From Escherichia phage Qbeta, in sequence record AB971354.1: DNA of 4,217 bases. One strand, written 5' to 3'. The translations under genes and the position numbers were made by a program. Below are positions 2,368 to 4,211 of the stretch, in pieces. Numbering within the stretch: the first letter of the stretch is position 1; every line of letters begins with the position of its first letter. Under the pieces are notes generated by a model. The model made no database searches and was not told where the DNA came from. It worked only from the letters and a program-made list of their open reading frames with translations.

Positions 2368-4121
2368 CTTCGCGTAACTCTCTCAGCGCACAATTGCGCC
2401 GAGCCGCGAACACAAGAATTGAGGTTGAAGGTAACCTCGCACTTTCCATTGCCAACGATTTACTGTTGGCCTATGGTCAGTCGCCATTTAACTCTGAGGC
2501 TGAGTGTATTTCATTCAGCCCGAGATTCGACGGGACCCCGGATGACTTTAGGATAAATTATCTTAAAGCCGAGATCATGTCGAAGTATGACGACTTCAGC
2601 CTAGGTATTGATACCGAAGCTGTTGCCTGGGAGAAGTTCCTGGCAGCAGAGGCTGAATGTGCTTTAACGAACGCTCGTCTCTATAGGCCTGACTACAGTG
2701 AGGATTTCAATTTCTCACTGGGCGAGTCATGTATACACATGGCTCGTAGAAAAATAGCCAAGCTAATAGGAGATGTTCCGTCCGTTGAGGGTATGTTGCG
2801 TCACTGCCGATTTTCTGGCGGTGCTACAACAACGAATAACCGTTCGTACGGTCATCCGTCCTTCAAGTTTGCGCTTCCGCAAGCGTGTACGCCTCGGGCT
2901 TTGAAGTATGTTTTAGCTCTCAGAGCTTCTACACATTTCGATATCAGAATTTCTGATATTAGCCCTTTTAATAAAGCAGTTACTGTACCTAAGAACAGTA
3001 AGACAGATCGTTGTATTGCTATCGAACCTGGTTGGAATATGTTTTTCCAACTGGGTATCGGTGGCATTCTACGCGATCGGTTGCGTTGCTGGGGTATCGA
3101 TCTGAATGATCAGACGATAAATCAGCGCCGCGCTCACGAAGGCTCCGTTACTAATAACTTAGCAACGGTTGATCTCTCAGCGGCAAGCGATTCTATATCT
3201 CTTGCCCTCTGTGAGCTCTTATTGCCCCCAGGCTGGTTTGAGGTTCTTATGGACCTCAGATCACCTAAGGGGCGATTGCCTGACGGTAGTGTTGTTACCT
3301 ACGAGAAGATTTCTTCTATGGGTAACGGTTACACATTCGAGCTCGAGTCGCTTATTTTTGCTTCTCTCGCTCGTTCCGTTTGTGAGATACTGGACTTAGA
3401 CTCGTCTGAGGTCACTGTTTACGGAGACGATATTATTTTACCGTCCTGTGCAGTCCCTGCCCTCCGGGAAGTTTTTAAGTATGTTGGTTTTACGACCAAT
3501 ACTAAAAAGACTTTTTCCGAGGGGCCGTTCAGAGAGTCGTGCGGCAAGCACTACTATTCTGGCGTAGATGTTACTCCCTTTTACATACGTCACCGTATAG
3601 TGAGTCCTGCCGATTTAATACTGGTTTTGAATAACCTATATCGGTGGGCCACAATTGACGGCGTATGGGATCCTAGGGCCCATTCTGTGTACCTCAAGTA
3701 TCGTAAGTTGCTGCCTAAACAGCTGCAACGTAATACTATACCTGATGGTTACGGTGATGGTGCCCTCGTCGGATCGGTCCTAATCAATCCTTTCGCGAAA
3801 AACCGCGGGTGGATCCGGTACGTACCGGTGATTACGGACCATACAAGGGACCGAGAGCGCGCTGAGTTGGGGTCGTATCTCTACGACCTCTTCTCGCGTT
3901 GTCTCTCGGAAAGTAACGATGGGTTGCCTCTTAGGGGTCCATCGGGTTGCGATTCTGCGGATCTATTTGCCATCGATCAGCTTATCTGTAGGAGTAATCC
4001 TACGAAGATAAGCAGGTCTACCGGCAAATTCGATATACAGTATATCGCGTGCAGTAGCCGTGTTCTGGCACCCTACGGGGTCTTCCAGGGCACGAAGGTT
4101 GCGTCTCTACACGAGGCGTAA
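2352..4121 (+). CDS. rep: RNA-dependent RNA polymerase, replicase beta subunit (589 aa)
   Basis: ORF to TAA at 4119-4121. Product begins MSKTASSRNSLSAQLRRAANTRIEVEGN..., which I recognise as the Qbeta replicase. Catalytic YGDD motif encoded at 3420-3431 (tac gga gac gat). Start set at ATG 2352 rather than the track's 2343 because of the Shine-Dalgarno spacing, the operator hairpin and the known N-terminus. Confidence 0.97.
   Translation: MSKTASSRNSLSAQLRRAANTRIEVEGNLALSIANDLLLAYGQSPFNSEAECISFSPRFDGTPDDFRINYLKAEIMSKYDDFSLGIDTEAVAWEKFLAAEAECALTNARLYRPDYSEDFNFSLGESCIHMARRKIAKLIGDVPSVEGMLRHCRFSGGATTTNNRSYGHPSFKFALPQACTPRALKYVLALRASTHFDIRISDISPFNKAVTVPKNSKTDRCIAIEPGWNMFFQLGIGGILRDRLRCWGIDLNDQTINQRRAHEGSVTNNLATVDLSAASDSISLALCELLLPPGWFEVLMDLRSPKGRLPDGSVVTYEKISSMGNGYTFELESLIFASLARSVCEILDLDSSEVTVYGDDIILPSCAVPALREVFKYVGFTTNTKKTFSEGPFRESCGKHYYSGVDVTPFYIRHRIVSPADLILVLNNLYRWATIDGVWDPRAHSVYLKYRKLLPKQLQRNTIPDGYGDGALVGSVLINPFAKNRGWIRYVPVITDHTRDRERAELGSYLYDLFSRCLSESNDGLPLRGPSGCDSADLFAIDQLICRSNPTKISRSTGKFDIQYIACSSRVLAPYGVFQGTKVASLHEA
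2545..2867 (+). promoter_or_regulatory. Approximate M-site: internal replicase binding region within the replicase gene
   Basis: Established knowledge for Qbeta, with coordinates recalled from the literature and approximate. Not independently verifiable from primary sequence without structure prediction. Confidence 0.4.
2972..2979 (+). other. Upstream partner of the long-range pseudoknot with the 3'-terminal hairpin loop
   Basis: Read directly: 2972-2979 UAAAGCAG is complementary to 4195-4202 CUGCUUUG (7 Watson-Crick pairs plus a terminal G-U). This matches the long-range interaction described as essential for Qbeta replication, about 1.2 kb upstream of the 3' end. Confidence 0.6.
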
Positions 4122-4129
4122 CCTGGGAG

Positions 4130-4146
4130 GGCGCCAATATGGCGCC
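4130..4146 (+). other. 3' UTR hairpin (6-bp GC-rich stem, 5-nt loop)
   Basis: GGCGCC (4130-4135) pairs with GGCGCC (4141-4146), loop AAUAU (4136-4140). Confidence 0.6.
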
Positions 4147-4148
4147 TA

Positions 4149-4170
4149 ATTGTGAATAAATTATCACAAT
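4149..4170 (+). other. 3' UTR hairpin (7-bp stem, 8-nt A/U-rich loop)
   Basis: AUUGUGA (4149-4155) pairs with UCACAAU (4164-4170), loop AUAAAUUA (4156-4163). Confidence 0.6.
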
Positions 4171-4183
4171 TACTCTTACGAGT

Positions 4184-4211
4184 GAGAGGGGGATCTGCTT
4201 TGCCCTCTCTC
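4184..4211 (+). other. 3'-terminal hairpin whose loop carries the pseudoknot-forming sequence
   Basis: G-rich arm GAGAGGGGG (4184-4192) pairs with the pyrimidine arm CCCUCUCUC (4203-4211) in either of two registers (7 to 9 bp). The loop contains UCUGCUUUG (4194-4202). The last nucleotides CUCCCA are left single-stranded. Confidence 0.6.

Follow-up and report, generated by a model that had tools for sequence, protein, structure and literature searches.

The window analysed here is the whole 4,217-nucleotide (nt) stretch of sequence record AB971354.1 from Escherichia phage Qβ, and the element in question is a pairing between the loop of its 3'-terminal hairpin, U1, and a site inside the replicase gene about 1.2 kb upstream. 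The two segments, 2972-2979 and 4195-4202, very probably constitute the long-range pseudoknot described in the literature for the Qβ plus strand. The element is real and was correctly interpreted in the original prediction, which was made from the letters of the sequence, but it is already known and not new. The complementarity, the location in the loop, the RNA-level conservation of both strands, the lack of a conserved alternative partner and the presence of an adjacent covarying helix are established here from the sequences; that the pairing is required for replication, and at which step, is taken from the literature. The features that define the pairing are as follows.

2972..2979, plus strand: 5' (upstream) pseudoknot strand, UAAAGCAG, in the replicase gene, comprising bases of the codons Asn-Lys-Ala and the first base of Val
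4195..4202, plus strand: 3' (downstream) pseudoknot strand, CUGCUUUG, within the loop of U1, the 3'-terminal hairpin
2352..4121, plus strand: gene of the replicase β-subunit, which holds the upstream pseudoknot strand (identified by its open reading frame, the annotation of near-identical records and its translation)

The original prediction had described an eight-base-pair (bp) complementarity. Eight contiguous pairs do form when TAAAGCAG (2972-2979) and CTGCTTTG (4195-4202) are set antiparallel, although they are not all Watson-Crick: seven are, and the eighth is a terminal wobble, U2972·G4202. The site at 2972 lies 1223 nt from the loop segment. It is the sole match of at least 7 bp at about 1200 nt upstream of the U1 loop, and the only 8-bp site with at most one G·U in the genome for the register 4195-4202. 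The energetics are favourable for the pseudoknot, with a duplex energy of -7.9 to -8.9 kcal/mol and about 3.5 kcal/mol needed to free both strands, the entropy of the pseudoknot loop being ignored in these values. The locations first proposed for the two strands both hold. The whole 3' segment falls within the loop of the last hairpin as predicted by RNAfold (4193-4202), and the upstream site is inside the replicase gene on the 3' side of the M-site. For the latter, the record of phage SP annotates a 'replicase binding region m' at 2629-2956, and the site homologous to Qβ 2972 lies past it, at 3062-3069.

The U1 loop of Qβ has been described as pairing with a sequence about 1200 nt upstream (PMC3561173, citing Klovins & van Duin 1999). 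Because 2972 is the sole match of sufficient length at that distance from the loop, it must be the published partner. The U1-loop partner and the proposed role in replication are shared with the Klovins & van Duin 1999 pseudoknot, and no difference was found. Added here are the G·U character of one pair, the competition for G2979, and a 7-bp form of the helix in MX1, M11, SP and NL95, the latter two points being described below. The 1999 study is said to have used compensatory mutagenesis, in which changes in a single strand lowered replication and the double change restored it. Secondary sources state that the Qβ pairing is essential for replication (PMC4176380, PMC4200798, PMC3561173), as the original prediction had it. 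The step can be given more narrowly, as the effect is on the initiation of minus-strand synthesis on the plus-strand template, with the 3' domain being brought to the active site of the S1-bound replicase (PMC4176380, PMC4200798).

Conservation was assessed in Qβ and 11 other alloleviviruses (12 genomes), drawn from group III (MX1, M11, TW18, HL4-9, BZ1, BR12, and FrMerlot) and group IV (SP, NL95, FI, and FI HB-P22). The replicase genes of groups III and IV are 58-60% identical to each other. A lack of conservation in related phages, which the original prediction regarded as damaging to the pairing, is not what these genomes display. The upstream segment, contained in the codons AAU-AAA-GCA-G(UN), is the same in 12/12 genomes, and the loop segment is CUGCUUUG in every allolevivirus compared but HL4-9, which carries CUGCUUAG. 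The constraint on the upstream strand extends to synonymous positions. Across 259 alignment columns with an invariant degenerate amino acid, the codon itself is unchanged in 43 (16.6%), and Asn-Lys-Ala at 2970-2978 is one of just three runs of three unchanged codons. Broken down by residue, the codon is unchanged in 2/11 of these columns for Asn, 8/14 for Lys and 1/20 for Ala, GCA at 2976-2978 being the sole unchanged Ala codon among the 20 conserved Ala positions. The product of these per-residue rates, for three consecutive invariant synonymous positions, is about 0.005. The flanking codons vary synonymously (UUU/UUC, GUU/GUC, GUA/GUU, CCU/CCA/CCG). Roughly 70 Qβ-like records match the region of the site; those inspected vary at 2966, 2969, 2982 or 2990, and no variant was found among them within 2970-2979.

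The base that differs in the HL4-9 loop, CUGCUUAG, is equivalent to 4201; the change breaks the A2973-U4201 pair and leaves six contiguous pairs. Either the end of the helix naturally tolerates this change, or the base is a sequencing error at the genome's end. Closer relatives of Qβ were also sought in IMG/VR and the JGI metagenomes, where contigs covering the site reach at most 46% replicase identity, one 93% match in IMG/VR is a fragment ending before the site, and nearly all contigs lack true 3' termini. A search of Rfam with E values up to 1 returned no family for either segment, the two chance hits lying far under their gathering scores.

The downstream strand is presented by a hairpin whose own structure is supported by compensatory changes. 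The window as a whole shares 99.8-100% identity with GQ153931 and AY099114 across their full lengths and encodes, in order, the maturation protein A2, the coat protein with the A1 read-through extension, and the replicase. The features of its 3'-terminal domain are listed below.

4184..4192, plus strand: 5' arm of the U1 stem (RNAfold; two stem pairs with compensatory changes)
4203..4211, plus strand: 3' arm of the U1 stem (RNAfold; the same two compensatory pairs)
4125..4130, plus strand: predicted partner of the 3'-terminal nucleotides 4211-4216, forming the helix that closes the 3'-terminal domain carrying U1

When the last 40 nt are folded with RNAfold, the stem 4184-4192/4203-4211 encloses a 10-nt loop, and two of its pairs change compensatorily across the alloleviviruses (9 distinct genomes). 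The partition-function fold of nt 2300-4217 gives unpaired probabilities of 0.95-1.0 for positions 4194-4199 and 4202 and places U4200 and U4201 in weak closing pairs (unpaired probability 0.24-0.29). MX1, M11, SP, and NL95 have a C in place of A4193, and their counterpart of G4202 is predicted to take part in closing the U1 stem, so that the pseudoknot in these phages would comprise 7 bp. The predicted pairing of the 3' end with 4125-4130 agrees with the model obtained by cryo-EM (cryo-electron microscopy), in which the last six nucleotides are paired with 4124-4129 (PMC8880383). Within the stem, position 4189 is G in the window and A in X14764 and in the natural isolates TW18, BZ1, BR12, HL4-9, and FrMerlot, which replaces an A-U pair with G·U.

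Directly downstream of the pseudoknot site begins a second long-range element, a helix consisting of the following strands.

2980..2988, plus strand: 5' strand of a long-distance helix obtained by folding, directly 3' of the pseudoknot site (the minimum-energy fold adds G2979)
4049..4058, plus strand: 3' strand of the same helix, through which a domain of about 1.07 kb is closed and the 3' domain comes to lie beside the pseudoknot site

Between groups III and IV, two pairs of the helix 2980-2988/4049-4057 are compensatory, with U-A changing to C-G and A-U to U·G (9 genomes). The pseudoknot site is directly 5' of this domain-closing helix, that is, at the domain boundary, and the 3'-terminal domain starts only about 65 nt past the 3' strand. 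By closing the domain of about 1.07 kb, the helix keeps the two strands of the pseudoknot next to each other despite the 1.2 kb of sequence between them. Both the long-distance helix and the pseudoknot lay claim to G2979. The helix 2980-2988/4049-4058 is probably the 'thousand-nucleotide' interaction reported in 1998, the two being equated by title and position only. Like the pseudoknot, the 1998 interaction is needed for replication and bridges about 1 kb in this part of the genome, and the span of the helix described here is about 1070 nt; being nested, it differs from the loop pseudoknot formed by 2972-2979 and 4195-4202. The substitution A2982G (Thr to Ala), selected under the mutagen 5-azacytidine and present in many KC1376xx clones (PMC3556134), lies in this helix at a distance of three bases from the pseudoknot site and changes an A-U pair to G·U.

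Several observations weigh against reading the complementarity as the published pseudoknot. The first is its chance frequency, which was estimated from 2000 dinucleotide shuffles of nt 1-4180, the sequence 5' of the hairpin. The exact 8-mer TAAAGCAG occurs in 4.1% of the shuffles and the 7-bp Watson-Crick core in 13.5%, and 17.8% hold some 8-bp site with at most one G·U. The match in a single genome is not significant, because 17.8% of the shuffles contain an equally good site; the figure of about 6% given earlier is a naive value for one fixed 8-mer and too low for the pairing class observed, and the accompanying concession that a lone match carries little weight agrees with the shuffles. Secondly, part of the conservation has other causes, because the upstream strand encodes part of the conserved replicase motif NKAVTVPK, the amino-acid motif NKAVTVPKNSKT being invariant, and because the loop both binds the maturation protein and has a core, UGCUU, that is conserved in many single-stranded RNA (ssRNA) phages far beyond Allolevivirus (PMC3561173). 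Thirdly, no covariation between the strands was found among 9 distinct alloleviviruses: seven of the eight pairs never vary, and the eighth is merely broken in HL4-9. As both strands are invariant, this test within Allolevivirus is uninformative and argues neither for nor against the pairing. Lastly, nested thermodynamic folding of Qβ gives 2972-2978 another partner (2660-2666), and the main text of the cryo-EM study names other long-range contacts without this one (PMC8880383). The pairing is meaningful through the comparative data and the literature, and not through the match in a single sequence.

These points bear most directly on the explanation that the complementarity is a coincidence, in which the upstream strand is kept for the replicase motif Asn-Lys-Ala-Val and the loop is kept for binding of the maturation protein. 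The shuffle frequency, the coding motif, the widespread loop core and the lack of covariation are all in keeping with it, as is the specific binding of the maturation protein by U1 in the virion, since U1 mutants lose that protein and infectivity (PMC8880383). However, a constraint on the protein offers no explanation for three consecutive unchanged synonymous positions, which include the sole unchanged Ala codon of 20. The genome also provides a decoy in another register, 4010-4017 with 4193-4200, which likewise forms 8 bp with one G·U and lies 183 nt upstream. This equally good match is not conserved; it differs even between Qβ strains, is unrelated in MX1 and SP, and was rejected as probably due to chance. 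Since the pairing of 2972-2979 has moreover been reported as essential for replication (PMC4176380, PMC3561173), coincidence appears very unlikely.

Slightly less credible again is the proposal that 2972-2978 has its functional partner in the nested segment 2660-2666 (UGCUUUA), closing the M-site domain, with the match to the loop being secondary. For nt 2300-4217, this partner is favoured by both the minimum-energy fold and the pair probabilities, the site has an unpaired probability of 0.07-0.49, and the duplex energy of -7.2 kcal/mol is near that of the pseudoknot. Nested folding algorithms, however, are unable to score a pseudoknot, and the partner is restricted to the Qβ lineage: the corresponding region reads UGCUAAG in MX1 and UGCUAUA in M11 and is unrelated in SP, NL95, and FI, while 2970-2979 is invariant in all. 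The folds of MX1 and SP give the site a different partner or none, so 2660-2666 was rejected as a conserved partner. Because neither decoy is conserved, no conserved alternative accounts for the RNA-level constraint at 2970-2979. The sequence UGCUUUA at 2660-2666 mimics that of the U1 loop, and its pairing with 2972-2978 might compete with the pseudoknot in the Qβ lineage alone or be just an artefact of prediction.

S1 and Hfq prefer A/U-rich single strands, and the conserved A/U-rich stretch at about 2966-2979 might primarily be a binding site for one of them instead of a pairing site, a notion helped by its position just 3' of the S1-bound M-site and by the predicted single-strandedness of 2966-2971 (UUUUAA; unpaired probability 0.93-0.99), but scarcely to be credited given that the U-rich part at 2964-2969 varies among phages (CCUUUU, CCUUUC, ACUUCA, ACUUCG), that strict invariance starts at A2970, two bases 5' of the complementary segment, that the literature consulted assigns no protein to these bases, and that such binding would be compatible with the pseudoknot anyway.

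Returning to the long-range pseudoknot, the literature suggests how it would act. The helix between loop and site would tether the 3'-terminal hairpin beside the M-site region, where the replicase binds through S1, and the tethering would place the 3' end at the active site for minus-strand initiation. In the virion, the same U1 stem-loop is presumably held by the maturation protein A2, and the U1 loop probably has alternative states, one for replication and one for packaging. Binding of U1 by the maturation protein is found in the virions of both Qβ and MS2 (PMC8880383) and uses the same 3'-terminal stem-loop. This contact is between RNA and protein, belongs to the packaged state and serves infectivity and incorporation of the maturation protein, whereas the pseudoknot is a contact between RNA and RNA that serves template activity.

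The pseudoknot explains how the Qβ replicase can locate the 3' end of a 4.2-kb template from the M-site, where it is bound internally, and it is a textbook case of long-range RNA structure governing viral replication; its re-identification brings no new biology. The value of the analysis lies in the method, in that invariance at synonymous sites combined with non-conserved decoys can validate an invariant pseudoknot where covariation is impossible.

Comparable pseudoknots have been proposed in other ssRNA phages but are unverified outside Qβ (PMC3561173). As in Qβ, the U1 loop in phage M and the other proposals contains GCU as its core, and the replicase gene holds a short stretch complementary to the loop about 1200 nt upstream (PMC3561173). 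In MS2, GA, PP7, AP205, PRR1, phiCb5, and M, no loop complement was found at the codon that corresponds exactly to Qβ 2972. In MS2, fr, GA, PP7, and LeviOr01, however, a site complementary to the phage's own U1 loop occurs at one common position of the replicase alignment, about 30 codons upstream of the Qβ-homologous position. The candidate partner sites are the following.

MS2: 2211-2216
fr and GA: 2199-2205
PP7: 2320-2325
LeviOr01: homologous position

The sites read CAAGCA(A) in MS2 and fr and CAAGCAA in GA and two BZ13 strains, and are complementary to loops of the form (C/U)UGCUUG. In PP7 (CUGAGC) and LeviOr01 (UUGAGCA) they lie 3-4 nt further along and are complementary to the loops GCUCAG and UGCUCA(G), respectively. 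For PP7, the chance of such a site within ±6 nt of the MS2 position is about 0.02 (5 hits in about 3500 nt). PRR1, AP205, and phiCb5 have no convincing site at the MS2/PP7 position, and a scan of 22 genomes for U1-loop complements from -170 to +10 nt relative to the VPK codon found 17, compared with an expectation of 11.7.

The sites in Emesvirus (MS2, fr, GA and the BZ13 strains) and Pepevirus (PP7 and LeviOr01) suggest a conserved but movable partner, which in Qubevirus is found some 30 codons further downstream. It is conceivable, though on balance doubtful, that the U1-loop pseudoknot is general in Fiersviridae, that its internal partner has moved in evolution, that the Emesvirus/Pepevirus match is true covariation between genera, and that pseudoknot and protein binding are exclusive states. 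A switch between template and cargo, set by mutually exclusive pseudoknot formation and protein binding, could exist because the maturation protein clamps the same loop in virions. The observation in MS2 and PP7 may already be covered by Klovins & van Duin 1999. As a lead, the covariation between MS2-like and PP7-like phages would be of use in designing replicons and RNA-amplification systems based on Qβ and MS2.

In phiCb5, AUUGCUGU is found both at about 2589-2597, at the Val-Pro-Lys motif of the replicase, and at 3741-3749. It has the same sense as the U1 loop sequence, making it a direct repeat rather than a complement, and is probably a coincidence. In the 12 alloleviviruses, the other two unchanged three-codon runs are located at 2991-2999 (Lys-Asn-Ser) and 3765-3773 (Leu-Val-Gly). 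The minimum-energy fold pairs 2989-2999 with 3389-3399, and both runs may reflect further constraints at the RNA level.

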